Below are positions 1 through 36,859 of a DNA stretch of 36,859 bases, one piece after another; positions within the stretch are counted from its first letter, which is position 1; each line of letters begins with the position of its first letter. This DNA is from a virus. Taxonomy: Duplodnaviria; Heunggongvirae; Uroviricota; Caudoviricetes. The notes beneath the pieces were generated by a model, which was not told the DNA's origin, made no database searches, and saw only the letters and a program-made list of their open reading frames with translations. Both the position numbers and the translations under genes were made by a program. Where the stretch lies: IMG/VR virus record IMGVR_UViG_2541047855_000003; one strand, written 5' to 3'.

Positions 1-59
1 GGTATCCGTTCTGCTGAAGTGTCATGGCGTTGATTTTACGGTGACTCTTCGACAGTGAA

Positions 60-85
60 AAGAAAAAAGGCCGCAGAGCGGCCAT
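60..85 (-). terminator. Possible rho-independent terminator downstream of the int-orphan transcript
   Basis: Short GC stem ggccg(69-73)/cggcc(79-83) with a 5-nt loop, adjacent to an A-run at 62-68 on + (T-run for minus-strand transcripts). Confidence 0.3.
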
Positions 86-189
86 AAACACAAACAAAAA
101 TCAATAAGTTAGATAATTATCAAAGACTTACAGACACACAAAAACACAGCCAACCACAACAAATAACAGGGATGTGGTCACTTTGTGGA

Positions 190-585
190 TCATTCGCTCC
201 CCTCTTTTTCCTTATTTCGTTGAACGCCAATTGCGACACACGTACTAAGCAAATCTTTACATTTCTCTACGTCTTCAGACTTACGCAATTTGATGCTTTT
301 TACAGACTGCGGGCTACTGTCCGTAGCACGATACATCGTTATTTCAATATCATTTCGGTCTAAGAGTCCCATAATGGCTTTTGCAACCTCCACACCCTTC
401 TTCGCGAAATCAAAGAACAGAGCAAGTTTATATGGATTTTCGACGGAAAAAACTTCAATTTTGCTAAAACCAACATCGTGTAGAGAAAAATATTGCTCAA
501 CCTCATCTCGAAGTTCTGGATCGCATACAATGTCTATTCTCCAGTACTGACCTAAATGCAAATCGCTATTAACTGTTTTTTCCAC
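190..585 (-). CDS. Hypothetical protein (about 131 aa), AT-rich orphan gene immediately downstream of int
   Basis: ORF 190..606 (minus). Likely GTG start at 585 with AGGAGG 5 nt upstream; 10-nt gap after the int stop; acidic/lysine-rich, no obvious TM segment; no family recognised. Confidence 0.5.
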   Translation of the reverse strand: MEKTVNSDLHLGQYWRIDIVCDPELRDEVEQYFSLHDVGFSKIEVFSVENPYKLALFFDFAKKGVEVAKAIMGLLDRNDIEITMYRATDSSPQSVKSIKLRKSEDVEKCKDLLSTCVAIGVQRNKEKEGSE

Positions 586-595
586 AACATCCTCC

Positions 596-1570
596 TTACC
601 CAGCAATAGGATTAAATCTCACCGCATCCTGCAAGTAATCCGGCGCAAGATGGGCATAAATCATCGTTGTCTGAATCTTTGCGTGCCCCAGAATTTTCTG
701 GAGCGTCAGAATATTGCCGCCGTTCATCATGAAATGACTGGCGAAGGTGTGGCGCAGCGCATGAACAGCCTGGCCGTCAGGAACATCAGGTGCGACCGTT
801 TTGATGACATCGCGAACCAATGGATAATCCAGCGTCGGAAACACCAGTTTCCCGCCCCGTTTTTTGATCTTTTCAAACAGGCTTTCAGAAATAGGAACGG
901 TACGGTTTTTGCTGTTCTTCGTTTTTGAAAAAGTGATTCGACAATGAAGAACACGGCGCTGCTCCAGTGCCGCTACCTCGCCCCATCGCGCCCCGGTCGA
1001 CAGAAGGATTTCGACAGCCAGCCGTTCATCGGGATTTTCAGCCAGTGCATCCAGCAACTGAACACATTCAGACTTACTCAGATATCCCATTTCGCGCTCG
1101 TTAACCTTCATTCCTTTAAGGCCTTGAACGGGGTTATCGTTTAGAAAATGGCCGGATGAGATGAGTGCGGTAAACATCGCGCTTAACGCCCCAATCTCTC
1201 GATTTATGGTGCTGGGCTGTATCCCCTGCTCTATCCTGGACACACGTAGCTCGGTGAGCATCGTTGTATTAAGTTTATGCACGCACGGGTCATCCATTGC
1301 CTCACTCAAGCGCAGCAATTTAAGGCGCGTGTTATGCCCTGACTTCATTAGCTGGCCGTGGTATTTCCACCACAAGTCAATAAGCACTGACAGAGGACGG
1401 CGATCAATAGAGTTTCCTTTCCACTCATTGTTATGCTGTTGCGCCAGCACCCACCGCTCATATAAAACTGCATCCGATTTCGTTTTAAATTTTTTGCGAA
1501 TGCGTTTGCCTTTACGCCCCTCAGGGCGCATGTCAAGAAGATACCCTCCCGGAATTGATTTTATGCTCAT
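596..1570 (-). CDS. int: Phage tyrosine integrase (site-specific recombinase)
   Basis: C-terminal motif HALRHTFASHF...LGHAKIQTTMIYAHL typical of tyrosine recombinases; about 325 aa from MSIKS; the long ORF to 1720 is probably an upstream in-frame extension. Confidence 0.9.
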   Translation of the reverse strand: MSIKSIPGGYLLDMRPEGRKGKRIRKKFKTKSDAVLYERWVLAQQHNNEWKGNSIDRRPLSVLIDLWWKYHGQLMKSGHNTRLKLLRLSEAMDDPCVHKLNTTMLTELRVSRIEQGIQPSTINREIGALSAMFTALISSGHFLNDNPVQGLKGMKVNEREMGYLSKSECVQLLDALAENPDERLAVEILLSTGARWGEVAALEQRRVLHCRITFSKTKNSKNRTVPISESLFEKIKKRGGKLVFPTLDYPLVRDVIKTVAPDVPDGQAVHALRHTFASHFMMNGGNILTLQKILGHAKIQTTMIYAHLAPDYLQDAVRFNPIAG

Positions 1571-1619: not shown

Positions 1620-1928
1620 TTAGCCGGGCTGTGTACCAGTCTTGCGGGGCTTTTGAGAAGACGATGTGTTTTCTGGCCCATCAGGGGAGAGAGAGGGACT
1701 GATCTGCCCAGCAGCCTCATTCGTTTTTCCTGTCATAAGCCAATTCATGTACTTAAAAAAGCGAGGGTGATTAACAATCTTGATAAGCACTTCGCCCCCT
1801 ATGTTTTCAATCCGCCCCGTTTCATAACGACGCAAAGTGCCGATAGGCACATCAATCAGGCCGCAAAATTCTTCGCGCGTTAAATCCTCTGATTCACGAA
1901 TCACTCTAATTTTTTCACCGATAAGCAT
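1620..1928 (-). CDS. Immunity repressor (P2 C-like, HTH XRE-type)
   Basis: About 100 aa, N-terminal HTH-like segment (LTREEFCGLIDVPIGTLRRYETG); directly upstream of int on the same strand and divergent from cox; start at 1928 (ATG) or 1964. Confidence 0.7.
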   Translation of the reverse strand: MLIGEKIRVIRESEDLTREEFCGLIDVPIGTLRRYETGRIENIGGEVLIKIVNHPRFFKYMNWLMTGKTNEAAGQISPSLSPDGPENTSSSQKPRKTGTQPG

Positions 1929-4313: not shown

Positions 4314-7093
4314 GTGAGTTTGCATGGAGCTGGAATGAACCACGACCAGCCATTGATCCGGCCAGATTTACGGAGCACAGGCAGGAAACTGAAACCGACC
4401 TGCAACGCGCCATCCGTTACTACCTTGAGGCAGACAAAAAGGCTCTGGAAGAACAGGAAGCGAAGGAGGAAGCCTTTTTCGCACAATCCACCGTGGGTAA
4501 AAAACTCATGGCATCCCTTGAGGAAGCCGGACAGCGTGAAAAGCTGGCACAAAGCATCATCAGCAAGCGTCAGGCAACAGAACAAGACCCGGTGGCCCGT
4601 GCTTTTGCCACACTGAAGGTGCTTCCCGTTTATCTGCGTGAACCTCTGAGCCGCCACCTCTCTTTCCTGCGCAAAAAACAGGAAGCCGATCGCCAGAAAG
4701 GCAAAAAGAGCTGGCAGGCTGAACGCTACGCGCGCGGAACCCTGCGCAAAATATTCGAACGTCTGGACCGCACCGATCACCGCTGGCTGACACCGGGTTA
4801 TCGCTCCCTTGCCGGACGCAAACGCCAGGACGATTTGCTTTACCTGCCGCAGCTCAACAAACACCAGATACAGACGCTGGCCACCATGACGGCGGCGATG
4901 TTCAGCAGCACCTTCGAAAAACTCTGCGATGGCTTTGGCGCGACTGATGGCGAACTGACCATGGATGTAACGCTGAAGGCGTATCAGATGCTGGCCCGCA
5001 TGGCGTTACACCTGCACACCATGCCTCCACATTATGACGCACTGACAACAGACAAAGACCGGAGGAACGAACCGGACACGGAGCTGCTGCCGGGCGCAAT
5101 CCTTCGCCTGACCTGTGCGGAATGGTGGAAACGCAAACTGTGGCTGTTACGTTGCGAGTGGAGAGAAGAACAACTCCGCGCCGCCTGTCTGGTTTCCAGA
5201 AAAACATCACCCTATCTGAGCCAGGACGCGTTAAGCGAGTTTCGCGCACAGCGCGAGAAAACACGCGATTTCCTGAAAAGTTTCATGCTGGAAAACGAAG
5301 ACGGGTTCACGATTGATCTCGAGACAGTGTATTACGCGGGAGTAAGTAACCCGGTTCACCGTAAGGCAGAAATGATGGCCACCATGAAGGGGCTGGAACT
5401 TCTGGCCGAGGCCCGTGGCGACAAAGCGGTGTTTCTGACTGTCACCTGCCCGTCAAAATACCACGCAACAACGGAGAACGGTCATCCAAACCCCAAATGG
5501 AACGGGGCCACCATGCGCGACTCCAGCGATTACCTGGTTAACACATTTTTTGCGGCGGTCCGCAAGAAACTGAACCGCGACGGCCTGCGCTGGTATGGCA
5601 TCCGCACGGTGGAGCCTCACCATGACGGCACCGTGCACTGGCATATGATGGTCTTTGCTCATCCGGAAGAAATCGACACCATTGTGTCCCACACCCGCGA
5701 TATTGCCATTCAGGAAGATCGTCACGAGCTGGGCGATGATATTACTCCGCGCTTTAAGGCGGAGTATGTCGACGGCTCAAAAGGCACGCCAACCAGCTAC
5801 ATCGCCACCTACATCGGAAAAAACCTGGACAGCCGCGCCGTGGATGGCATCGACCCGAAAACAGGCAAACCACGCGTTGACCACGAAACCGGAAAATCAA
5901 TGGCCGAGAGCGTGGAGCGCGCCATCGGCTGGGCGCGCCTTCACCGGGTCCGCCAGTTCCAGTTCTTTGGCATCCCCTCCCGTCAGGTGTGGCGTGAACT
6001 GCGCCGTCTTGCCAGCCAGATGGCACGCAACCCGGAAGGCCCGCAACGGCTGAAGGATGACGCAATGGATGCGGTACTCGCTGCCGCTGATGCCGGGTGT
6101 TTTGCCTCCTACATTGAAAAACAGGGTGGCGTACTTGTTCCACGCAAGGACTACCTGATTCGCACCGCCTACGACCTCGCAGATGAGCTGAACGATTACG
6201 GCGAACAGAGCGTACAGATTTACGGGATCTGGTCACCACTCATCGGGGAATCCTCCCGTGTGTGCACGCACCCGGATAACTGGAAGCTGGTAAGACGTAA
6301 ACCGGAAGCGGAAGACAGCACCCGCGAAAATGATTTTGACCTTCAGGGCGGCCCTGCCGCCCCTTGGACTCGTGGCAATAACTGTCCCCGTGTACAGGAA
6401 ACGGACAACAACGGGACAGAACAGCCGGAAGAACGGCCAGCACTGTGGCCGCAGCTTCCTGACGGCGTTGATGTGGATGAATGGATGCGCTCACTGAAAC
6501 GGCACGAACGCCGGGCGCTGATGCGTTCGCTTCGTGACAAACAGGCAAAAAACAGCAGTGATGAAATGCAGAGCTGGACACAGAGCCGCAAACAGCAGCG
6601 GCCTTTGCCTGATAACCACGAATTACTCGCTAAAGAATGGCGGGAATCTGCCGAATCTCTCGGCCTGCATATCGGTGAACAGCAGATGCAGCACCTGTTA
6701 CGAGGCGGCAGTCTGTACGTTGACGGCAGCATCATTGCACCGCAGGGATTTGAAATTGTACGCAAACCAGATACCCGACCGGACAGCCGAATCACGCAGC
6801 TCTGGCAGCGCCTGAGCCGTAATCACGGCGTAAACAGCACGGAAATCCGTCATAACCCGGTTTCCAGCTATCTGAAACAGCTCGGGGCATCAGACCCAGA
6901 AGCCGCTGCACGCCTGGCATCCACAATTCAGCAGGACCAGAACACCATGAAAACTCCCGTTACCGTGCTTTCTGACATGCTGCGCGCCATCCGTGACGCA
7001 GAGCACGCACAGAGAATCAATGAAACCACTGAACGCGCACGTCACAAGGCGAGTCTGTTGCAGGACAAAGGCAATAGCGAGAAGAAAAAATAA
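4310..7093 (+). CDS. A: Replication initiation endonuclease (P2 gpA-like, rolling-circle initiator)
   Basis: Motifs HWHMMVF and YIATYIGKN (paired catalytic tyrosines) typical of the phage GPA family; position after the early genes; long C-terminal region. Confidence 0.9.
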   Translation: MSEFAWSWNEPRPAIDPARFTEHRQETETDLQRAIRYYLEADKKALEEQEAKEEAFFAQSTVGKKLMASLEEAGQREKLAQSIISKRQATEQDPVARAFATLKVLPVYLREPLSRHLSFLRKKQEADRQKGKKSWQAERYARGTLRKIFERLDRTDHRWLTPGYRSLAGRKRQDDLLYLPQLNKHQIQTLATMTAAMFSSTFEKLCDGFGATDGELTMDVTLKAYQMLARMALHLHTMPPHYDALTTDKDRRNEPDTELLPGAILRLTCAEWWKRKLWLLRCEWREEQLRAACLVSRKTSPYLSQDALSEFRAQREKTRDFLKSFMLENEDGFTIDLETVYYAGVSNPVHRKAEMMATMKGLELLAEARGDKAVFLTVTCPSKYHATTENGHPNPKWNGATMRDSSDYLVNTFFAAVRKKLNRDGLRWYGIRTVEPHHDGTVHWHMMVFAHPEEIDTIVSHTRDIAIQEDRHELGDDITPRFKAEYVDGSKGTPTSYIATYIGKNLDSRAVDGIDPKTGKPRVDHETGKSMAESVERAIGWARLHRVRQFQFFGIPSRQVWRELRRLASQMARNPEGPQRLKDDAMDAVLAAADAGCFASYIEKQGGVLVPRKDYLIRTAYDLADELNDYGEQSVQIYGIWSPLIGESSRVCTHPDNWKLVRRKPEAEDSTRENDFDLQGGPAAPWTRGNNCPRVQETDNNGTEQPEERPALWPQLPDGVDVDEWMRSLKRHERRALMRSLRDKQAKNSSDEMQSWTQSRKQQRPLPDNHELLAKEWRESAESLGLHIGEQQMQHLLRGGSLYVDGSIIAPQGFEIVRKPDTRPDSRITQLWQRLSRNHGVNSTEIRHNPVSSYLKQLGASDPEAAARLASTIQQDQNTMKTPVTVLSDMLRAIRDAEHAQRINETTERARHKASLLQDKGNSEKKK

Positions 7094-7273: not shown

Positions 7274-8395
7274 ATGGGCGACTTAGGTGGTATTCAGTCA
7301 GATTTAGCCCAACTAGTTAGACTGGTAATAGCTGAACAGTATGATGACGTTCGGTTATATGTCGCTCGCTTGGTGCGTAAATATCGGGAAACTATGCCTG
7401 CTCTATCCGAGCAGCTTGATCTTTATCTACGAAATAAACCGCAAAAGCCTGCACAAAGTCTGCGTAAGGTTACCGCACCAAAACAAGCGCTGCCTCAAAC
7501 CATGCCTGTGGACGAGGAGTCAAGGCTTACCTTGCTTAAAGCACCAAATGAAAAGATTGTGAGCAAACCTCTACTGTCCAGTCAGATAGAAGACTCACTG
7601 GATCAAATTATTCTTGAGCGGAAGCACATCGATCGCCTCAAGGCTCTCGGCTTACAACCAACACGCTCTGCCATTTTTGTTGGCCCTCCGGGTGTAGGTA
7701 AAACACTTACGGCAAGCTGGTTAGCTCAGAAATTAGGGGTTCCTTTTTACGTTCTTGATTTAACGGCAGTAATGAGCAGCTATCTGGGCAAAAGCGGAAA
7801 TAACCTTCGGGCAGCTCTAGATTTTGCGAAGAAAGGGCCGTGCGTTCTTCTGTTAGATGAAATTGATTCAATCGCCAAAAAGAGAAGTGATGATTCTGAT
7901 GTTGGAGAATTAAAAAGACTTGTTACCGTGATACTCCAGGAGGTTGACGAATGGCCGTCTTCTAGTTTGCTACTTGCTGCAACTAACTTCGCTGAGTTGA
8001 TTGATCCAGCACTATGGAGACGTTTTGATTTAGTGCTCAATTTTGAGAAGCCAGATAGTGAAAGTATTAAAGAAGCAATTAAACGCTTTTCAGGTCCCGA
8101 CTACGCGATTTTTGCACGTTGGATAGATCTACTGGCTATTATGTTCAAAAATGAATCTTTTAGTAATATTGAGCGTTCTATCAACAAATTCCGACGTTCG
8201 GTCGCTTTAGGTATTTCCTCAGATGAAGAGTTGATTGGGTCGTTCATTAAAGATGGTTTATCAGAATTAGACAGGAATGAACGTAAAGAAATTGCAGTTA
8301 CTCTAAAAAGAAATTCTAAATTATCCCAGCATGCCATATCAGACTTAACCGGAGTCAGTAGGGATACAATTAGAAAATACAGTCAAAAAATGTAA
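7274..8395 (+). CDS. ietA: Classic AAA+ ATPase with C-terminal HTH-like tail (IetA-like defence ATPase candidate)
   Basis: Walker A GPPGVGKT (K143, about nt 7700), Walker B LLLDEID, sensor-1 LLLAATN, arginine-finger region PALWRRFD; C-terminus LSQHAISDLTGVSRDTIRKY resembles an HTH. Symbol is from remembered architecture, not a search. Confidence 0.8.
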   Translation: MGDLGGIQSDLAQLVRLVIAEQYDDVRLYVARLVRKYRETMPALSEQLDLYLRNKPQKPAQSLRKVTAPKQALPQTMPVDEESRLTLLKAPNEKIVSKPLLSSQIEDSLDQIILERKHIDRLKALGLQPTRSAIFVGPPGVGKTLTASWLAQKLGVPFYVLDLTAVMSSYLGKSGNNLRAALDFAKKGPCVLLLDEIDSIAKKRSDDSDVGELKRLVTVILQEVDEWPSSSLLLAATNFAELIDPALWRRFDLVLNFEKPDSESIKEAIKRFSGPDYAIFARWIDLLAIMFKNESFSNIERSINKFRRSVALGISSDEELIGSFIKDGLSELDRNERKEIAVTLKRNSKLSQHAISDLTGVSRDTIRKYSQKM

Positions 8396-8418: not shown

Positions 8419-10644
8419 ATGGCGAAAACTAATTTTCTGATTGGACGCGGCGAATTATTAACCAGCGATATTCCTGGTCCTAAAAGAGTGCCCGGAAAAG
8501 CTGAGGTTTATTCTCTTTACGAATCGAAACAACGTTTATTGCCGCAAATTGCATCTACTATAGAAAATTTTGATGATTTACCCAGTCAGGCATGTCCTTA
8601 TGATTATGCTGTGGCTAAGTTGACGTTGAATCCGAGCTATATTGCACGCTCTTTTTTTCCTGCAAAAATGCTTAAGTCTACCGGGTTAACGTCTATTGGC
8701 AGCAGGACGGTAAAAATTACGCCTCAAAGCTGGAAGCGAAAAGTTACTGTGTCAGAAGTAACTACGACACAAATGTTTGTTGCTGGTAAAAGAGAATCCT
8801 TCAAAGAGTTACCTCATTGGGTGTCAGGACTCAAAGAGTTTTCTGACGAAGCGATTGATTTTGCACGCATAGAACGGTTCGATGCCTATTTACCCGAAGA
8901 GCGTATTATTACCATTGGTGAGCAGGATTCTTCGTATTTTGAGGTTGGTGTTCATTTACTGCCAGATAATGAACAAGACTTGGTTCAGCAACAATTTGTT
9001 CAGTTTGCATCAAATTTGAACATCAAAGTACATACTTCATTAGCTTTTACCGCTGGTACATTATGGTTCGTGCCAATCCAGGCCGATAGAATTACTATTA
9101 GTAAGCTTGCGAAATTTACATTTGTACGAGTAATAAGACCGGTTCCAAGATTGCGTGGGATTAGACCAATACAAAGGAACTACGGTCCTTTAGCTCAGTG
9201 TAAGTTGCCTGCTGAGGGCCCCGTATCTTCAGAAATAAAAGTTGCGATTCTTGATGGTGGTTTACCATCAGAGCACACTATATCGCCATGGTTAAAATCC
9301 TATAGAGTTTTGGACGATCATGCAGAGGATGATCCAGACGGTTTAGAGCATGGTTTAGCTGTGTCTTCAGCCTTTTTATTTGGACCAATAAGTAATAAAT
9401 CGGAAGCGAAAAGACCATACTCTTATATTGATAACTTAAGAGTTTTGGACAACAAGACCTGCCAAGAAGATCCGCTGGAACTATATCGAACTTTGGGCTT
9501 TATTGAAGAGGTATTGTTGTCTCGCCAGTATCAGTTTATCAATCTAAGTTTAGGTCCAGACCTACCAATTGAAGATACGGAAGTTCATGCATGGACTTCC
9601 GTTATTGATGATTTGTTAAGTGATGGTGAAACATTAATGACTGTTGCTGTTGGCAACAATGGAGAAATGGATCGCAAGTCTGGTAATGCAAGAATTCAAG
9701 TACCAGCCGATTGCGTTAATGCTCTTGCTGTTGGTGCTTGTGATACAGTTAATGATACGGAATGGAAACGAGCACCATATAGCGCCATTGGGCCAGGCAG
9801 AAGTCCTGGCGTGATGAAACCGGATTTAGTTGCGTTTGGTGGTGACACAGACGAGTACTTTCATGTTTTAGGTAAAGGTAAGAAGCCTGTAATCATACCC
9901 CAGCTAGGAACAAGCTTTGCCTCTCCTTACGCCTTACGAGCAGCTGTTGGTGTTCGGGCAGTTTTAGGGAACGATTTGAGCCTACTAGCAATCAAAGCTT
10001 TGTTAATTCATGCGTCAAAACAGCTTGATCATCCTTGTACAGAAGTTGGCTGGGGAAAACTGCCTGAAGACTTGAACGACATTATAGTCAGCCCTGATGG
10101 TATTGCCCGTATCGTCTACCAAGGTGAATTGAAACCAGGAAAATACTTACGCGCTTCTCTTCCAATACCTGAAGGTGGCTTGAAAGGTAGAATAAACTTA
10201 GCGGCAACTTTCTGTTATGCAACAACCACTGATCCACAAGACCCAGCTTCCTATACAAAAGCTGGTTTGGAAGTGACATTCCGGCCAAATGATTCAAAAA
10301 TCAAAGACGGAAAACAAAATGCTGAAACCAAGGGATTCTTTGAACTGGCCAAATATTCAACTGAAAGTGAGCGACGTTCTGACATGGGCAAATGGGAGAC
10401 CGTCTTACATAATTCGAAGAACATGCTAGGTTCAACTCTAAAAAATCCTGTATTTGACATTCATTATAACGCTCGTGAGGCCGGTGCAAGCATAGCCAGC
10501 CATAAGGCAGAAAAAATCAAGTATGCTCTTATAATTACCATTAAGGCATCAAAGCACCAAGACCTGTATAACGAAATTTTACGTACTTATAATCAGGTGC
10601 TCGTGCCAATTCAACCGCAAACATCAATTCCTATTCGTTCGTAA
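8419..10644 (+). CDS. ietS: Cytoplasmic subtilisin-like S8 serine peptidase with large N- and C-terminal extra domains (IetS-like candidate)
   Basis: S8 triad in canonical order: D279 (VAILDGG, nt about 9253), H311 (EHGLAVSS, about 9349), S499 (GTSFASP, about 9913), oxyanion Asn in VGNNGE; no N-terminal signal peptide; AAGGAG RBS 5 nt upstream. Confidence 0.85.
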   Translation: MAKTNFLIGRGELLTSDIPGPKRVPGKAEVYSLYESKQRLLPQIASTIENFDDLPSQACPYDYAVAKLTLNPSYIARSFFPAKMLKSTGLTSIGSRTVKITPQSWKRKVTVSEVTTTQMFVAGKRESFKELPHWVSGLKEFSDEAIDFARIERFDAYLPEERIITIGEQDSSYFEVGVHLLPDNEQDLVQQQFVQFASNLNIKVHTSLAFTAGTLWFVPIQADRITISKLAKFTFVRVIRPVPRLRGIRPIQRNYGPLAQCKLPAEGPVSSEIKVAILDGGLPSEHTISPWLKSYRVLDDHAEDDPDGLEHGLAVSSAFLFGPISNKSEAKRPYSYIDNLRVLDNKTCQEDPLELYRTLGFIEEVLLSRQYQFINLSLGPDLPIEDTEVHAWTSVIDDLLSDGETLMTVAVGNNGEMDRKSGNARIQVPADCVNALAVGACDTVNDTEWKRAPYSAIGPGRSPGVMKPDLVAFGGDTDEYFHVLGKGKKPVIIPQLGTSFASPYALRAAVGVRAVLGNDLSLLAIKALLIHASKQLDHPCTEVGWGKLPEDLNDIIVSPDGIARIVYQGELKPGKYLRASLPIPEGGLKGRINLAATFCYATTTDPQDPASYTKAGLEVTFRPNDSKIKDGKQNAETKGFFELAKYSTESERRSDMGKWETVLHNSKNMLGSTLKNPVFDIHYNAREAGASIASHKAEKIKYALIITIKASKHQDLYNEILRTYNQVLVPIQPQTSIPIRS

Positions 10645-22346: not shown

Positions 22347-24806
22347 ATGAGTACCACAACACGAAAATTTAAAACCGTTATCACCGATACGGGTGCCAAA
22401 AAATTAGCTCAGGCAGCCGCGCCAGATGGTAAGCCTGTCCGCCTGACTCATATGGCCGTGGGCGACGGTGGCGGTACATTGCCCACACCAGACAGTAAGC
22501 AGACCCGTCTGGTGCATGAGGTGTGGCGACATACTGTTAATCGCATCATCCTGGACGCAACACATCAGAACCGCATTATTGCAGAGCTGGTTATTCCTCC
22601 TGAAACGGGCGGATTCTGGATCCGGGAAATTGGTGTGTTTGATGAGCACGGCGATTTGATCGCGGTGGGCAATACTGCCGAAAGTTACAAGCCAGCCGTT
22701 GCCGAAGGGTCCGGACGTGCACAAACATTTCGCACCATTCTGACCGTATCCAGCACTGCCACCGTGGCGCTTACCGTGGATAACACCATGGTTATGGCCA
22801 CAGTGGATTACGTGAATGACAAACTGAAAGAACATGAACAGTCACGACGTCATCCGGACGCCTCGCTGACCGCAAAAGGCTTTGTTCAACTCAGTAGCGC
22901 CACCAACAGCACGTCTGAAGCACTGGCCGCAACGCCGAAAGCGGTCAAGGCAGCCTATGACCTTGCTAACGGGAAATATACCGCACAGGACGCCACTACA
23001 GCGCGAAAAGGTCTTGTCCAGCTCAGTAGTGCCACCAACAGCACGTCTGAAACGCTCGCCGCAACACCAAAAGCGGTAAAGGCCGCGTATGACCTTGCTA
23101 ACGGGAAATACACTGCACAGGACGCCACCACAGCGCGAAAAGGTCTTGTCCAGCTCAGTAGCGTCACCAACAGCGATTCTGAAACGCTCGCCGCAACACC
23201 AAAAGCGGTTAAGGCAGCGTATGATCTTGCTAACGAAAAATATACCGCACAGGACGCCACCACAGCGCGAAAAGGCCTTGTTCAGCTCAGTAGCGCCACC
23301 AACAGCGATTCTGAAACGCTGGCGGCAACGCCAAAGGCGGTTAAGACAGCGTATGACCTTGCTAACGGGAAATACACTGCACAGGATGCCACCACGGCGC
23401 GGAAAGGTCTTGTTCAGCTTAATAGTGCCATCAACAGCGATTCTGAAACGCTGGCTGCAACACCAAAAGCGGTGAAGTCTGCCTATGACAATGCTGAAAA
23501 ACGTCTTCAGAAAGATCAGAACGGTGCGGATATTCCGGGAAAGGATACCTTCACGAAAAATATCGGTGCCTGTCGTGCTTATAGCGGTGCTTTGAGCACT
23601 GAATCCGGAAACTGGACAACCGCTCAGTTTATTGAATGGCTGGATTCCCGTGGTGCATTTAATCATCCGTACTGGATGTGCAAAGGCTCCTGGTCATATG
23701 CAAATAACAAAATCATTACGGATACCGGATGTGGTGATATCCACCTGGCTGGTTGTGTCGTCGAGGTCATGGGAACTAAATCTGCAATCACTATCCGAGT
23801 GACCACGCCGACAACATCAAGCGGTGGCGGTACAACCAGCGCGCAATTCACTTACATAAATCATGGGGACGGCTACTCCCCCGGCTGGCGTCGTGACTGG
23901 AATCGTCAGGGCGACGCAATGACCGGAACGATTAATCAGGATGGCGGAAGCCAGAATGCCTATATGTCTACGGCCTTATGTTCAGGCACCAGAGGCGGCA
24001 AAAAATATCTCAGAAAGTTTCGTGGTGGAGAAGGAGACACTATCTGGCATGAAACAGTACAGGCTGGGGTAATTCGCTGGGCGACAGGTAATACTGATGC
24101 TCAGGAAGAATTATCACTCAGCTCCGCTTATGGTCTCCGTTCTAGAGGTGAAATTACATCACTCAGTGCTAATGGTCTGCGCATTGCTTATGGCAATTAT
24201 GGATTCTTTATCAGGAATGATGGTGGCAGCACATATTTAATGCTGACGACCTCTGGCGATAAATTTGGGACATGGAACGGTTTAAGGCCGCTGACTATCA
24301 ATAACGCTAATGGCGGAGTGTCAATGGGGCATGGCCTGAGTGTTACTGGTGATATTGTCTCAAGTACCAAAGTACGTGCCGGTAGCGGGAAAAAACTCAC
24401 GGTCAGCAGCAGTAATACATCCACGAAGGAAGCCGCATTCAATTTGTGGGGAAACTCAAGTCGCCCGGTGGTAGCTGAATTAGGTGATGATGCAGGCTGG
24501 CATTTTTACAGCCAAAGAAATACAGATAACAGCATCACTTTTGCTGTTAACGGGCAGGTATCACCATCTAACTATGGCAACTTTGATTCACGTTATGTCC
24601 GGGATATTAGACTTGGTGGTGCGTCATCCTATAAACCAGCAAATAACGGGACAACATGGACGCATCAGACTCCATCTGGTTGCGCGTATACCGGGATAAT
24701 TGTTCAGGATACAGGCTCAAATTCTGCCGATAATATTGGTGGTGTTTATTACAGACCAATTCAAAAAAATATTAATGGCACATGGTATAACGTATCGAGT
24801 GTTTGA
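22347..24806 (+). CDS. H: Tail fibre protein H with internal tandem repeats and divergent C-terminal receptor-binding region
   Basis: N-terminus MSTTTRKFKTVITDTGAKKLAQA... is gpH-like; 819 aa; five in-frame 44-aa repeats; C-terminal third is lower-GC. Confidence 0.9.
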   Translation: MSTTTRKFKTVITDTGAKKLAQAAAPDGKPVRLTHMAVGDGGGTLPTPDSKQTRLVHEVWRHTVNRIILDATHQNRIIAELVIPPETGGFWIREIGVFDEHGDLIAVGNTAESYKPAVAEGSGRAQTFRTILTVSSTATVALTVDNTMVMATVDYVNDKLKEHEQSRRHPDASLTAKGFVQLSSATNSTSEALAATPKAVKAAYDLANGKYTAQDATTARKGLVQLSSATNSTSETLAATPKAVKAAYDLANGKYTAQDATTARKGLVQLSSVTNSDSETLAATPKAVKAAYDLANEKYTAQDATTARKGLVQLSSATNSDSETLAATPKAVKTAYDLANGKYTAQDATTARKGLVQLNSAINSDSETLAATPKAVKSAYDNAEKRLQKDQNGADIPGKDTFTKNIGACRAYSGALSTESGNWTTAQFIEWLDSRGAFNHPYWMCKGSWSYANNKIITDTGCGDIHLAGCVVEVMGTKSAITIRVTTPTTSSGGGTTSAQFTYINHGDGYSPGWRRDWNRQGDAMTGTINQDGGSQNAYMSTALCSGTRGGKKYLRKFRGGEGDTIWHETVQAGVIRWATGNTDAQEELSLSSAYGLRSRGEITSLSANGLRIAYGNYGFFIRNDGGSTYLMLTTSGDKFGTWNGLRPLTINNANGGVSMGHGLSVTGDIVSSTKVRAGSGKKLTVSSSNTSTKEAAFNLWGNSSRPVVAELGDDAGWHFYSQRNTDNSITFAVNGQVSPSNYGNFDSRYVRDIRLGGASSYKPANNGTTWTHQTPSGCAYTGIIVQDTGSNSADNIGGVYYRPIQKNINGTWYNVSSV
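22862..23496 (+). repeat. In-frame tandem repeat array inside H (about 4.8 copies of a 132-bp / 44-aa unit)
   Basis: Unit TAQDATTARKGLVQLSSATNS(T/D)SETLAATPKAVKAAYDLANGKY repeats with a few substitutions; period checked as 132 nt between recurring AAAAGG anchors. Confidence 0.9.
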
Positions 24807-30959: not shown

Positions 30960-31116
30960 AGCTTCAGCCCCTTGTATCCGTTAAATGATTCGGCAACAAT
31001 CATCACCCACCACGCGCGTAATCTCACCCCTGCGCCGTTCTCCCGCCACGGCGACAACAAAAAGCAGTAACCCCCTACGCACGCACATGCGACCATGCCG
31101 CACAGGGAGGGAACAG

Positions 31117-32226
31117 ATGACCGATACCACCATGCAATTGCTCAGTCAGAGCACAGACCCCGTGAAAATGCCGGATTTTGATATTCTCGCGGAGGGGGAA
31201 ACACTGTCCGGCGTGGCAGAGCGCCTGATGAGCCTGTCACTGACCGACAACCGGGGATTTGAAGCGGACCAGCTCACCATCACGCTGGATGATGCGGATG
31301 GTCAGTTGCAGCTACCGCCACGGGGCGTGCGCCTGACGGTTCTCATTGGCTGGAAAGGAGAACCGCTGACAGAAAAAGGCACTTACATTGTTGATGAAAT
31401 CGCTCACGAAGGACCGCCGGACAGGCTGACGGTTTCAGCCAGAAGCGCAGATTTTCGGGATGAATTTAACGTTAAACGTGAGGTGTCCTGGCATGATGTG
31501 ACCGTTGAGCGCGTGGTATCCGCCATCGCTCATCGGTATGGTCTGAAACCGCAAATCAGCGAAATGCTGATGGATATAGAAATCGACCACGCCGACCAGA
31601 CCGAAGAAAGCGACATGTCCTTTCTTACGCGCATGGCGGAAATGCTGGGCGCAATCACCACAGTAAAAAGCGGTAATCTGTTATTCATCATGCCCGGTGG
31701 TGGCGTGAACGCACAGGGCCAGCCGTTGCCATCGTTCGCCATCACACGCAGCAGCGGCGATCGCCATCAGTTCCGCATTGCTGACCGCGAGGCGTATACG
31801 GGTGTACGCGCCTACTGGCTTGATCTTAATTACGGGAAAAAGAAAAAAGTCAGCGTGAAACGCCGCAAACCGCAAAAACCCAAAAAGGAGAAAAGCAGCA
31901 GCCGTGAAGGTGATTATATGGAAGGCGCGGAAGGCAACGTGTTTGTGTTACGCAAGACTTATCAGAACGAGCAGGCAGCAAGACGCGCAGCGGCGGCAAA
32001 GTGGCAGCAGCTACAACGCGGAGCCGCAGCGTTCTCCATCACACTGGCACGTGGACGCGCAGAACTCTACCCCGAAATGCATGGCACGGTAACAGGATTT
32101 AAAAGCGAAATTGATAATCAGGACTGGATTATTGCAAAAGCCGAGCACACCATTGATAACAGCGGCTTTACCACGCAGCTTGAACTTGAGGCAAAAATCC
32201 CGGAATGGATAGCAGAAACAGCTTGA
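31117..32226 (+). CDS. D: Tail protein D (late control gene D-like)
   Basis: ATG 31117 with GGGAGG RBS; about 370 aa with lysine-rich internal stretch; position before ogr. Confidence 0.8.
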   Translation: MTDTTMQLLSQSTDPVKMPDFDILAEGETLSGVAERLMSLSLTDNRGFEADQLTITLDDADGQLQLPPRGVRLTVLIGWKGEPLTEKGTYIVDEIAHEGPPDRLTVSARSADFRDEFNVKREVSWHDVTVERVVSAIAHRYGLKPQISEMLMDIEIDHADQTEESDMSFLTRMAEMLGAITTVKSGNLLFIMPGGGVNAQGQPLPSFAITRSSGDRHQFRIADREAYTGVRAYWLDLNYGKKKKVSVKRRKPQKPKKEKSSSREGDYMEGAEGNVFVLRKTYQNEQAARRAAAAKWQQLQRGAAAFSITLARGRAELYPEMHGTVTGFKSEIDNQDWIIAKAEHTIDNSGFTTQLELEAKIPEWIAETA

Positions 32227-32394: not shown

Positions 32395-34428
32395 TCAACT
32401 TTGCCAATCATCAGCTATCTGTTGCCAATTAACTTTCCGAGGTTCTTTTGTAGTGCTAGACCACACATCCCAAAAATCAGGATCATCAGATTGCGGTCGT
32501 TGTTTTTCAGTAAGCTCTTTCATTCTAACTAAAACAGGAAGTTCTGAAGCCCATCCAAGTAAAATAGCATGCCTAGATGGTAACGATGGCAGCTCTCTCA
32601 ACAGCCCTCTCATATTATCTGGAACAAGTCTATGTACTTGCTCTTGATCTCTATCATTACTAATCCTGTGCAACAAAAAAGTATTACATTGAGATAAAAC
32701 CGTCGGAGATAGCTCTGATGGCCTTTGGGAAGAAACAACAAGGCCTAGCCCAAACTTTCTTCCTTCCCGTGCAATCTTTTCAAACACCTTGCAACATATA
32801 TCAGAGACTGACTGAGTTTCACTATCTTCCTTGTAACGTTTAATAAACGTATGCGCTTCTTCTGCAACTAAAACTGTTGGTAGCGGCCTTCCATTTAATC
32901 TTCGATAACGTTGTAGTGCTTCAAAAGCCACCCTAGAAATTACAGCTGTTACCAAATGAATTATTTCATTTGGTACTAGAGATAAATCTATAACAGTTAT
33001 AGATCCTTGTTCATTTTTACCGAGAAAAGTGTCTAACCAATTAGTTAAACTTATAGGCTTTACAGAATCATTGGTTACTGCACTAATACGAGTGTCACCT
33101 AGCATTGTTCGAATACGAGTCAAAAGAAACTCAACGAATTGTTCTGTACCTGTTTCTTGAGCCAGAGCTTCGAGATATGCGACAAAATCATCGCCTTTAA
33201 AACGCATAGGCGCATCTTCGCTTTTTGGAAGAAGTTCTTGTTCATCTCCCCCTAGAGCTGTATATGCATCTCTGAATCCATTAATCAACAACTCAATCTC
33301 GGAAACAACAGGCTTTGCTGGCCAAGAAGATCCACTTCGTGAAGAAAGATACGTATTTATTGTGTTTATTAGCTTATCGAGCGATTTATCAACAATTCTC
33401 TCGTTTAAGATAGAAATACTATCTCTCCAAGAACCCAAAGTTTCAACCAAACCTTTAGCAGATCCACTATTCACATATATCTGACCTTGACTTGCCTGCT
33501 GTCTCATAGATACAAGAAGGATACCGCAAAAGCGTTTGGCTTGAATTTTCACATCATCTTCTGATAGAAGATTATTCCTCATTGCCCTCAAAGCACGACG
33601 TAGTAAAGGAAGTTGCACCTTTGAACTTGCTTGAGTGAAAGCAGCCCACTCAGAACTATTCCATAACCATGAAGGTACTTTAAGATCCATCTCTCCGACA
33701 TCGATGTTAGCCTCTACACGTAATAGTTTACCCTTATATCTTGATTCTGGCCCTAAAGCTCTACTATATTCTCCGTTCGGATCAAGTATTATAAATCGAG
33801 CATTTGGAGATTTTCCCTGTTGTAAAACAGCATCAAGAGACCATTGAATTAAGCCGGCCACCGAACATGATTTACCACTACCCGTATTACCTAAAACAGC
33901 TATATGTCGTCCGAAAAGTCTATCGGGGTCTACTTTTATTTCAGCATTGTTAGCTAGGGGGCTATCCCCTATTTTTACCCTTCTATTATCACCTGATTCA
34001 ATTATTGATTGTAATTGTCGGTCAGTAGGCAAAAGCACAGAGTCACCAACCGAAGGGAAAGCATCAGTTCCTCTCGTGAACCTGAAACCTTCGTTTTTTC
34101 TATCAACTCTCAATGTACCAACTGGATTGATACTAAGCTTTTTAAGTGGGAAAGGAAGGTCTATCAACCCAAAATCTTGTAAGCCTCTTCTTTTGGGATA
34201 TGGCGAGTTTTCTATTGCAATCCACTCAACTTGCCCAACAAGAAACCCGTCATCACTACGGATTAAAATATAACTATTTATTCTAGGAAAATTACGAGGC
34301 GCCCCACCTTGAAGTGATACTGAATCAGGAGAATCAATCTCTAAAGACACCCTAATTTCATTAGGTGATACAAACTCAACAGTTCCAATTCTTAGTTGTT
34401 CTATTTTTTCTATTGGTAAATAACTCAT
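32395..34428 (-). CDS. herA: HerA-like P-loop ATPase (SIR2-HerA defence pair, ATPase component)
   Basis: Walker A GNTGSGKS (about nt 33868-33891), Walker B VLVAEEAH, SQRP motif; N-terminal beta-rich region; start at M3 (34428, GAGGT 6 nt upstream) or 34434; overlaps the upstream gene stop by 4 nt. Confidence 0.8.
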   Translation of the reverse strand: MSYLPIEKIEQLRIGTVEFVSPNEIRVSLEIDSPDSVSLQGGAPRNFPRINSYILIRSDDGFLVGQVEWIAIENSPYPKRRGLQDFGLIDLPFPLKKLSINPVGTLRVDRKNEGFRFTRGTDAFPSVGDSVLLPTDRQLQSIIESGDNRRVKIGDSPLANNAEIKVDPDRLFGRHIAVLGNTGSGKSCSVAGLIQWSLDAVLQQGKSPNARFIILDPNGEYSRALGPESRYKGKLLRVEANIDVGEMDLKVPSWLWNSSEWAAFTQASSKVQLPLLRRALRAMRNNLLSEDDVKIQAKRFCGILLVSMRQQASQGQIYVNSGSAKGLVETLGSWRDSISILNERIVDKSLDKLINTINTYLSSRSGSSWPAKPVVSEIELLINGFRDAYTALGGDEQELLPKSEDAPMRFKGDDFVAYLEALAQETGTEQFVEFLLTRIRTMLGDTRISAVTNDSVKPISLTNWLDTFLGKNEQGSITVIDLSLVPNEIIHLVTAVISRVAFEALQRYRRLNGRPLPTVLVAEEAHTFIKRYKEDSETQSVSDICCKVFEKIAREGRKFGLGLVVSSQRPSELSPTVLSQCNTFLLHRISNDRDQEQVHRLVPDNMRGLLRELPSLPSRHAILLGWASELPVLVRMKELTEKQRPQSDDPDFWDVWSSTTKEPRKVNWQQIADDWQS

Positions 34429-34430
34429 TG

Positions 34431-35843
34431 TCATACCTCAACTTCGGCTGAATTACCTAACTCTTTGAACTGCATAAAGCCTCTTTGTTTGAGCAACTCT
34501 GCCATCTTGATTGATGCTTTATCAATAGCTGGTTTAGGTAAATAGTTATCAACTAAAGTTTTGAAGTCTCCTAAATGATCTCCCATCAAAAGGGTAATCT
34601 GTGCTTTTCTTCCACTATTACTAATGAAACGCATAATTCTGCCAAGTGGATCGCCAAAGGCTATTATTACTATATGAGTGGAAGGTACCGTAAGCATGTC
34701 TTCAATTACTCTATTGATATGCTCATCACCAAAGCTATAACCATAAGTGACTAATGTGCTATTTGGACGGCTAGTTGCTGCTGCCAGATCTCGAAATAGC
34801 TCAACATAAGGATACTCGGCTGTTTCTCTGTCTTTTACTGAATTAGGGTAAATCATCAGTTTTTCATAGCCATTGCTTTGATGACCTTCGGCTTCCAAAA
34901 ACGGCTCAACAGAACGTGCTCCAAAGGGTAAGCCAAAGCGCCTAATCGCATTATTTTGTTCATGCCAATCAAGGGAACCATGAAGTTTAGTAAAACGTGC
35001 CACGCCCTCCAAGTATCTTGGTTCACCACGGATTCCAGGAGGATTATAATGATAATCAACTTCTAATCTTGAGGATCGAAATACTGGAGCAATACTTCCT
35101 ACAAAGCGATCAATAAGTCTTAAACCAGCAAGCTCAGCACCCACTTCAATAATACGGTCATAATTTGTTGTAAAGATATGTAGCCTATCGCGAGTGGCAG
35201 TTCTACTTGCAAAGCTCATCAAAAAACTAACTAGATAGTTGAAAGTTTCCTCTTTCCGGGCTGGTTCAGCAGTTTTGATTAAATATTCTCCTTTAATTAT
35301 AGATTTAGAAAACTCCCCCAAGCATCTAGAAAGCTCGCCTTTGAGCTCGCCCAAGTCTGCTTTTAAGTTTCTATAAGCAGAATAAGGAGGTGGCGGATTT
35401 TCTGGTTGAGGAGTATTTAACACCGTTAAAATTTCGAGACCTTTAATAAGTTCATTGATAGTTCTAATTTGATCTTCTATATTTCCTCTATCGCGACCTG
35501 CAGCTTTTGCAGCCTGAGTGGAAAATTCATCTATTTCGCTTTTACATACTTTTAAATCATTAATCCACCCCATCCCTACTGGAGATAAACCTGTAGCTGA
35601 TTTTTGAATAGCCGAGCTTAAGCCTGCACCGATTAATAAATTTAAATGCTCTGATTGGAAGAGAGCTGTTAGCCAGGGCTCAATATTTTGGCGCAATTTC
35701 TCAATTGATATTTCTGCCCCCTGTTCTCCCCATACACAGTTCTTCGAGAGGATAAAAGGATGAGAATCAGCATGCTCGCCAGAATTAGATGATAGATCAA
35801 TAATTTCTGATATACTGCCAACTTTTATATGTTGAATACTCAT
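34431..35843 (-). CDS. sir2: SIR2-family (sirtuin-like NADase fold) protein, partner of HerA
   Basis: SIR2-type motifs in order: LLIGAGLS, TTNYD, KLHGSLDW; likely start at 35843 (MSIQHIK); AT-rich codon usage. Confidence 0.8.
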   Translation of the reverse strand: MSIQHIKVGSISEIIDLSSNSGEHADSHPFILSKNCVWGEQGAEISIEKLRQNIEPWLTALFQSEHLNLLIGAGLSSAIQKSATGLSPVGMGWINDLKVCKSEIDEFSTQAAKAAGRDRGNIEDQIRTINELIKGLEILTVLNTPQPENPPPPYSAYRNLKADLGELKGELSRCLGEFSKSIIKGEYLIKTAEPARKEETFNYLVSFLMSFASRTATRDRLHIFTTNYDRIIEVGAELAGLRLIDRFVGSIAPVFRSSRLEVDYHYNPPGIRGEPRYLEGVARFTKLHGSLDWHEQNNAIRRFGLPFGARSVEPFLEAEGHQSNGYEKLMIYPNSVKDRETAEYPYVELFRDLAAATSRPNSTLVTYGYSFGDEHINRVIEDMLTVPSTHIVIIAFGDPLGRIMRFISNSGRKAQITLLMGDHLGDFKTLVDNYLPKPAIDKASIKMAELLKQRGFMQFKELGNSAEVEV

Positions 35844-36267: not shown

Positions 36268-36528
36268 ATGTTCCGTTGTCCACTTTGTGGCGCGTCTGCC
36301 CGTATCCGCACCAGTCGTCCGGAAAATGACTCAAACACCGTGCGGCAAAAGTATTACCAGTGTAATAACCTGGAATGCGGCGTATGCTTCTCAACACTGG
36401 AAGCTTTTCATAAGTTCACATCAAAACACACCTCAGAAGTTCATTCTTCAGAAGACATACCGTGGCAGGCTCTGCCAGCTTCACACAGGGGGAACAATCA
36501 GATGAGTTTGCCCTTATCTCAGAATTAA
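36268..36528 (+). CDS. ogr: Ogr-like zinc-finger late-gene transcription activator
   Basis: MFRCPLCGASARIRTSR...YYQCNNLECGVCF matches the Ogr Cys4 pattern (CPLC...RTSR...QC...C); AGGGAGG RBS; 86 aa, longer than P2 Ogr. Confidence 0.85.
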   Translation: MFRCPLCGASARIRTSRPENDSNTVRQKYYQCNNLECGVCFSTLEAFHKFTSKHTSEVHSSEDIPWQALPASHRGNNQMSLPLSQN

Positions 36529-36588: not shown

Positions 36589-36852
36589 ATGGTCGGAGGG
36601 AATACCCGAAGGCCAGATGTGGAAAGGCCCCGGAAAACATCTCTGTTTAACCGAGGCCCTAACCGCATTACCTTGACAAGTGAAAGGTTAGCGCCTCTCC
36701 TGAAAAGGAGCAAGTGCTATGTCGCAAAAATCGCTTACGGCCATCACGTTCTGCGTGACGGCAATCCTCATCATCTGGATGCTGCACGGTTCGCTGTGCG
36801 AAATACGGATGAGCTTCTGGGGAGCGGAGTTTGCGGCGTTCTTACAGTGTAA
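36589..36852 (+). CDS. mok: mok-like overlapping reading frame (modulator of killing) of the hok locus
   Basis: ORF starting upstream of hok and overlapping it in another frame, as in hok/sok loci; no independent sequence evidence. Confidence 0.4.
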   Translation: MVGGNTRRPDVERPRKTSLFNRGPNRITLTSERLAPLLKRSKCYVAKIAYGHHVLRDGNPHHLDAARFAVRNTDELLGSGVCGVLTV

Positions 36853-36859
36853 GCAGTAA
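36719..36859 (+). CDS. hok: Hok/Gef-family type I toxin (small membrane protein)
   Basis: 46 aa MSQKSLTAITFCVTAILIIWMLHGSLCEIRMSFWGAEFAAFLQCKQ: N-terminal TM helix plus the family motif SLCEIR and AAF; AAGGAG RBS; stop TAA is the last codon of the window. Confidence 0.8.
   Translation: MSQKSLTAITFCVTAILIIWMLHGSLCEIRMSFWGAEFAAFLQCKQ

Follow-up and report, generated by a model that had tools for sequence, protein, structure and literature searches.

In this study, we characterised orf131, a small gene on the minus strand (positions 190-585) of a P2-like prophage, which lies between the integrase gene int and the left attachment site attL in the IMG/VR virus record IMGVR_UViG_2541047855_000003. 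The whole stretch of DNA that was analysed, 36,859 nucleotides long, is referred to below as the window. Judged from its conservation, orf131 is a genuine gene under purifying selection, and the comparison of related prophages indicates that it is very probably a horizontally exchanged cargo gene of the slot between int and att. Our best explanation as a whole, to which we assign a probability of about 0.45, is that this cargo gene is the last cistron of the lysogenic operon and serves phage exclusion in the lysogen. The slot itself has already been described, and orf131 is a previously uncharacterised example of the cargo of this P2 hotspot. It would be reasonable to include it in a defence screen, and as a find it is not surprising.

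The orf131 gene and the left boundary of the prophage

The open reading frame extends over positions 190-606 from a TTG and over 190-585 from a GTG, and the chance of 138 codons staying open at the same composition is approximately 2e-5. Three observations favour the GTG at 585 as the start codon: the RefSeq version of the gene is 396 nt long, in agreement with this start, positions 1-128 of the PHROG profile described below pair with residues 1-128 of the product, and the Salmonella orthologue has an ATG at the matching codon. The preceding gene, int, encodes a P2-type tyrosine integrase of 324 amino acids (596-1570, minus strand; Pfam Int_N, E 1.5e-28, and Phage_integrase, E 7.9e-20; RefSeq annotation). 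Its stop codon TAA (598-596) is overlapped by the Shine-Dalgarno sequence AAGGAGG of orf131 (597-591, minus strand, read from the sequence), which is followed by a 5-nt spacer and the GTG, and the gap between the two genes is 10 nt. This arrangement of a gene of about 131 amino acids, a short gap, a strong ribosome-binding site and a GTG start had been proposed in an earlier sequence-only reading of the window, and all of it was confirmed from the sequence and RefSeq. Both the start position and the Shine-Dalgarno sequence were conserved when the junction was compared across lineages. The gene had also been called AT-rich, which is borne out by a G+C content of 40.0% over 190-606 compared with approximately 50% (about 0.49-0.52) over int.

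The ratio of nonsynonymous to synonymous substitution rates (dN/dS) of orf131 was 0.16 in a comparison with the copy of E. coli (Escherichia coli) GF60, which is 77% identical (dS 1.07), and 0.24 in a comparison with the Salmonella copy (dS 1.25). Truncated remnants in some lineages and the shorter length of some database entries of the family would suit a non-functional passenger or a spurious reading frame, a concern that the sequence-only reading had itself raised, but these dN/dS values, the conserved start and Shine-Dalgarno sequence, the compact fold predicted by AlphaFold and a match to a PHROG family at E 4.4e-70 argue against it. Moreover, the full length was kept in 159 genomes, with one sampled copy being a base short and unannotated. 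We consider a non-functional orf131 extremely improbable. A search for fusion partners among the partial homologues (L050-L052) returned only truncated remnants next to ogr.

The left boundary of the prophage, which the sequence-only reading had left open, was resolved by aligning the prophage ends with prophage-free strains: in this comparison the att core occupies positions 63-83, and bases 1-83 are DNA that the host also has. For this purpose attL was taken from the window, attB from K-12 (L002) and attR from a sibling prophage (L004, ~41696-41717), as the window ends short of attR. The 21-bp core AAAAAAGGCCGCAGAGCGGCC is the same in all three. Each of the 5,426 complete E. coli genomes matches the left end of the window; sampled genomes without the prophage, e.g., K-12 RP437, match bases 1-83 only. 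In K-12, these bases fall in the 100-bp spacer between btuC and ihfA, both of which are on the minus strand, and the btuC start codon is directly to the left of base 1. Positions 1-62 are thus host DNA upstream of btuC and outside the prophage. The proposal that positions 1-58 could be the 3' end of a plus-strand host reading frame was rejected, as the region is this spacer and the frame is absent from annotated host genomes. The SE11 genome paper of 2008 had already listed a P2-like prophage at this position, between btuC and ihfA, and gave 25 nt for the duplication (PMC2608844). A 2026 survey of P2-like viruses gives the BtuC permease the status of an "auxiliary metabolic gene" of phages (PMC13100340), which is probably an overshoot of the prophage boundary at this site, since btuC lies 62 nt beyond the att core.

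The core also holds an intrinsic terminator on the minus strand (59-83), i.e., the hairpin GGCCGCTCTGCGGCC (83-69) followed by the T-run TTTTTTCTTT (68-59), which is the sole minus-strand terminator-like site within the scanned positions 1-2100. In K-12, 18 nt separate the ihfA stop codon from the same hairpin downstream. A hairpin and T-run therefore do follow the gene, as had been noted, but they are not a private terminator of orf131, being the att core and the duplicated ihfA terminator. The site also coincides with a candidate small RNA, STnc540 (Rfam RF02082), which spans the 3' end of ihfA, the terminator and the btuC leader, and which scores 67 bits in K-12 (L002 1501-1659, minus strand) and 78 bits in Salmonella. 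The prophage integrates within it, and the copy at attL (window 1-124, minus strand), at 22.5 bits, falls short of the gathering score of 38. Beyond this sub-threshold match, which belongs to the host att region, the Rfam search of positions 1-2100 returned nothing.

Between the core and orf131 lies the attP arm (84-192), which is laid out like that of a P2-type phage. It contains two tandem perfect matches to the IHF consensus WATCAANNNNTTR (99-111 and 118-130, plus strand); the 36.9-kb window has four matches, two of them in this arm, where 1.45 would be expected overall. Two predicted Int arm-binding direct repeats, TGTGGTCA (173-180, plus strand) and the degenerate TGTGGATCA (184-192, plus strand), correspond to the P2-group consensus tgTGGaCa (PMC3448106). 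They are 11 bp, or one helical turn, apart, and a similar pair is found in the other arm, at attR. A 19-nt block, TGATCCACAAAGTGACCAC, which includes both repeats, does not vary between the window, GF60 and Salmonella, whereas the remainder of the arm diverges. The TGA stop codon of orf131 (190-192) falls within the second repeat. On this sequence evidence orf131 clearly abuts the outer edge of attP on the phage side, because its stop codon is embedded in the arm repeat. The gene is wedged between int and attL inside the prophage, as had been supposed, with the core, the IHF sites and the arm repeats separating it from host DNA.

Cargo of the slot between int and att

With presence defined as coverage of at least 80% of the gene length, 159 of the 5,426 complete E. 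coli genomes contained orf131, and in each of them it was a single-copy chromosomal gene at the btuC/ihfA site. These approximately 3% of genomes include enteropathogenic E. coli (EPEC) E2348/69, O26, O111, O55:H7 and the O104:H4 outbreak lineage, and the gene also occurs in many Salmonella. The same attP arm was present in 299 complete genomes, among which the 159 carry orf131 and at least 86 and at least 39 carry variants of an unrelated two-gene cassette. This alternative cassette encodes a zinc-ribbon-like CxxC...CxxC protein (120-166 amino acids) and a DUF1640 coiled-coil protein (~145 amino acids) with a C-terminal membrane anchor. Three divergent variants of it (23-37% identity), all uncharacterised, occur in at least 125 complete E. 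coli genomes; examples are found at L003 4193-5231, L007 2726-3522, L008 2726-3525 and L009 4039-4983, and in the last of these an IS3 element is inserted between the cassette and attL. Between the window and the prophages with the alternative cassette, int is 98.9% and the attP arm 97.2% identical, and the similarity is lost at the arm repeat and, at the opposite end, at the final three or four int codons. The alternative cassette shares with orf131 these breakpoints, the orientation, the lack of a promoter and its occurrence in sibling prophages at btuC/ihfA. However, it consists of two genes, one of which encodes a membrane-anchored protein, and has no sequence relation to orf131. An exchanged cargo gene, supported by this replacement within near-identical flanks, is the very probable reading. 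The left 700 bases of the window were 100% identical to seven complete E. coli chromosomes among the matches listed, and over its whole length, apart from the immunity region (1743-1991), the window was 99.5% identical to the prophage of strain MFDS1006657.

The idea that orf131 could be an att-proximal moron, as was previously suggested for this gene, is a fair one and holds in part. In the broad sense it is one: it lies within the att boundaries, is replaced by an unrelated cassette in sibling prophages whose flanks are 97-99% identical, and differs from int in G+C content. It is not an autonomous unit with its own promoter and terminator, as a classical moron would be. The exchanged cassette begins approximately 20 nt before the start codon, no promoter-like site was found in it, and the terminator is the att core, which is not part of the cassette.

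The interval between int and att of P2-like phages was recently named as a minor defence hotspot (PMC13586616, 2026), and a third P2 hotspot was described between a tail protein and CI (bioRxiv 10.1101/2024.10.15.618418). Like the hotspot cargo, orf131 has the same location between int and att within a mobilised element, varies among near-identical prophages and has an atypical base composition. The cargoes that were counted in the survey are, however, recognised defence systems (PMC13586616), whereas orf131 matches no defence model.

The linkage between int and orf131 appears in more than one host genus. In Salmonella, the orthologue is found in the same order of C, int, orf131, attL and btuC (L012), and between the E. 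coli and Salmonella lineages the Int proteins are 83% and the orf131 products 61-72% identical. These values show, as far as the sequences can tell, that the linkage is old, the two genes having diverged together, and that the cargo evolves faster than int. Such a linkage to the same int/att module across the divergence of E. coli and Salmonella, together with the position of the family next to attP in every case and the stop codon embedded in an Int arm site, could point to an accessory of site-specific recombination that modulates Int, IHF or Cox at attP, or the expression of int. We regard this as very unlikely. Near-identical int/attP modules work with the unrelated membrane-protein cassette instead, distant homologues accompany other att sites and other host flanks, and no DNA-binding domain was recognised in a product whose prophage already encodes a Cox-like directionality factor (2025-2303).

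The distant homologues (30-34% identity) are located at the opposite end of the prophage, where the order is host gene, att, homologue and terminator, followed by ogr and gpD on the opposite strand; one branch adjoins host raiA. On the circular map, the family gene lies between ogr and int and is oriented as int wherever ogr or int is visible, and attP comes either after it, as in the window and in Salmonella (L012), or before it, as on the ogr side (L010 and L041). A terminator-like hairpin was found between the att arm and the start of the homologue on the ogr side (L010 1314-1341) and on the raiA side (L013 ~4964-4988), in the latter only approximately 20 nt upstream of the gene.

Protein family, expression and possible function

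The product of orf131 is a predicted soluble acidic alpha/beta protein of approximately 15 kDa (131 amino acids; WP_000416304.1 family) with an isoelectric point (pI) of 5.15, 24 Asp and Glu compared with 19 Lys and Arg residues, and a grand average of hydropathy of -0.40. No membrane segment was predicted, the top 19-residue Kyte-Doolittle mean being 0.99, and neither a signal peptide nor a secretion signal was found; the N-terminus is polar. The pI and the hydropathy maximum agree with the previous description of an acidic protein without a transmembrane segment. The protein belongs to phrog_14142, a PHROGs family of unassigned function, which it matches over residues 1-128 against all 128 positions of the profile; all 11 aligned homologues match the same profile. 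The statement that no family could be recognised hence holds for Pfam, NCBIfam, PADLOC and the PDB but not for PHROGs. The protein had no match in Pfam or NCBIfam, none in PADLOC-DB v2.0.0 at E up to 1 and nothing below E 0.2 in a profile search of the PDB sequences, and when all or some of the homologues were scanned against Pfam, PHROGs and NCBIfam at lenient thresholds, phrog_14142 alone was returned.

The family is small. A word-indexed search of 5.8 billion proteins gave 11 hits, and a HMMER profile search of 1.84 billion cluster representatives gave 16 at E up to 0.001 and 11 at E up to 1e-10, and the credible hits of both searches are all the same small family of small proteins. Its members come from E. 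coli, Salmonella and Citrobacter, and Symbiopectobacterium has a fragment; thus far this tiny family was found only in prophages of Enterobacterales. Searches with tblastn revealed no match to orf131 in 50,697 phage records or 72,556 plasmids, and none to the distant homologue P0014 in the same phage records. No literature was found on the accession numbers of orf131 or on the PHROG identifier. The most conserved block is A68..I71-M-G-L..R77.D79-I-E81-I, in addition to H10 and T88. Structure prediction with AlphaFold suggested a compact alpha/beta fold with a ferredoxin-like beta-alpha-beta-beta-alpha-beta unit and a beta-alpha-beta extension, and the model gave no convincing or informative fold match among solved or predicted viral structures.

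The submitter of an ENA record in the P0014 cluster named it "PDDEXK family nuclease", and residues D59, D79 and E81 are conserved or nearly so, which would be in keeping with a PD-(D/E)xK-type nuclease. The label, however, has no support from motif, hidden Markov model or fold: the D...(D/E)xK motif in an alpha-beta-beta-beta-alpha-beta fold was not found in the protein, and we rejected a nuclease as most improbable. With neither a signal peptide nor a transmembrane segment, the product also does not fit membrane-type superinfection exclusion proteins (Sie, Imm, Cor-like). Nor was a type II toxin-antitoxin module found, as orf131 stands alone between int and the attP arm, without a partner reading frame.

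P2 expresses its C repressor and its integrase from one operon, Pc (PMC3936717). The first gene of the corresponding leftward operon in the window encodes a C-type immunity repressor with a helix-turn-helix domain (1620-1928, minus strand; Pfam HTH_3 and HTH_31; E2348/69 annotation), and orf131 is probably the last cistron of this lysogenic operon (C, int, orf131). Co-transcription with C and int is suggested because the genes are on the same strand, the gap is 10 nt, no terminator-like site intervenes and there is no room for a separate promoter, the exchanged cassette beginning so close to the start codon. Transcription from Pc would run through C, int and orf131; orf131 would be translated from its own strong Shine-Dalgarno sequence and GTG, possibly coupled to the termination of int translation. 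The transcript would end at the att-core hairpin (83-69), before btuC, and this duplicated ihfA terminator would shield btuCED from read-through. In this manner, orf131 would be expressed in the lysogen. A comparable wiring is known from phage lambda, in which the exclusion genes rexA-rexB are co-transcribed with the cI repressor gene. In both cases, the cargo would be downstream in an operon that maintains lysogeny and on whenever the prophage is repressed. The lambda Rex system, however, has two components, of which RexB is a membrane protein, whereas orf131 would act as a single soluble protein, has no similarity to them, and its co-transcription is deduced from the gene arrangement.

Considering the function, we tentatively propose that orf131 has an anti-phage role (exclusion or abortive infection) as a single protein that acts in the lysogen. 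By analogy, this role is favoured because all of the characterised P2 cargo is anti-phage (bioRxiv 10.1101/2024.10.15.618418), because the slot is a defence hotspot and because most of the tested hotspot loci of P4 were protective: among eight loci without an assigned function that were tested in P4 satellites, six protected against phages (PMC13586616). The prior for defence is further raised because the same prophage carries the IetAS and SIR2-HerA systems in its other hotspots. Like orf131, the genes old, tin and Z/fun of P2 are non-essential cargo of a P2-type prophage in hotspots, and they were described as defence cargo. However, they occupy the gpA-gpQ and tail-gene hotspots, the former of which holds IetAS here, and have no sequence or fold relation to orf131, a far smaller gene of the probable repressor-integrase operon. 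A still more specific proposal appears doubtful, namely that phrog_14142 would be a previously undescribed single-protein immunity factor against phages or satellites, without a detectable fold relative, which is wired into the repressor-integrase operon and alternates with an undescribed zinc-ribbon and DUF1640 module.

Several observations weigh against the exclusion role and the operon model. The searches of Pfam, NCBIfam, PADLOC and the PDB sequences gave no homology evidence for any activity, and the AlphaFold model, which was based on 11 sequences, is only moderately confident (mean predicted local distance difference test, pLDDT, 77.5). The slot between int and att holds just 3% of the known P2 defence systems (PMC13586616). 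The simple scan of positions 1-2100, which returned no promoter-like site, also missed Pc itself. The distant homologues on the ogr side are cut off from int in the prophage state and have a terminator-like hairpin upstream; expression from the C-int operon is therefore not universal to the family. Finally, the gene is decaying in some lineages, which retain N-terminally truncated remnants.

The arrangement of these distant homologues could also be read differently. On the circular map the family is always just downstream of int in the same orientation, and where attP comes before the gene, it can be reached from int only when the genome is circular. This would suit a factor of establishment or counter-defence that works against host defence or for lysogeny in the course of infection, at the stage of an active Pc and a circular genome, and the small, soluble and mildly acidic product resembles many anti-defence proteins. 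Nevertheless, such a factor seems unlikely. In the arrangement with attP first, the terminator-like hairpin separates the gene from att. The product, with its net charge of -5 and pI of 5.15, does not come near the values of DNA mimics. Early lytic operons are the usual place of anti-defence genes, and a large survey found only two anti-defence types in 28 P2 elements (PMC13586616).

Alternatively, orf131 could serve lysogenic conversion, with host physiology or virulence and not phages as its target. A position in the lysogenic operon would suit constitutive low expression, and many pathogens are among the carriers, such as EPEC E2348/69, O26:H11 11368, O111, O55:H7 CB9615 and the O104:H4 outbreak strains. 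However, collections of complete genomes over-represent pathogens, and carriers were also isolated from pigs, poultry, an echidna and the environment. Moreover, the product has no signal peptide, membrane segment or secretion signal, and neither virulence factors nor antibiotic resistance genes are known to be spread by P2 and P4 (PMC13586616). Taken together, this makes a conversion factor decidedly improbable.

Should orf131 prove to serve defence or exclusion, the catalogue of such systems would gain a compact one-gene member whose fold is unmatched, and there would be experimental support for the interval between int and att as a hotspot at work in P2-like phages. Without an anti-phage role, it would be one more prophage gene without an assigned function, which is useful but unsurprising. 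In either case, the att map is precise enough for an easy design of clean deletions and cassette swaps.

Other features of the prophage

The two recognised defence pairs of the prophage were identified using PADLOC. IetA and IetS (7274-8395 and 8419-10644, plus strand; E 9e-78 and 3e-51) occupy the classical gpA-gpQ hotspot, and SIR2 and HerA (32395-34434 and 34431-35843, minus strand; E 3.5e-252 and 2.5e-155) are located between gpD (30985-32226) and ogr (36268-36528). Despite the neighbouring insertion of SIR2-HerA, gpD is intact; its RefSeq start in a sibling genome is shorter. The last gene before the attR arm encodes a toxin of the Hok/Gef family (36719-36859, plus strand), at whose stop codon the window ends, and which faces orf131 across attP on the circular map.

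The region that distinguishes the window from the prophage of MFDS1006657 (1743-1991) comprises the operator region and the part of the repressor gene that encodes the N-terminus, and its immunity type matches that of E2348/69. Two direct repeats, TATAAGTACAC, which are probably the operators, are located between C and cox at approximately 1951-1992. Additionally, the tail-fibre gene contains four tandem repeats of 132 nt (22871-23533), which are 75-89% identical.

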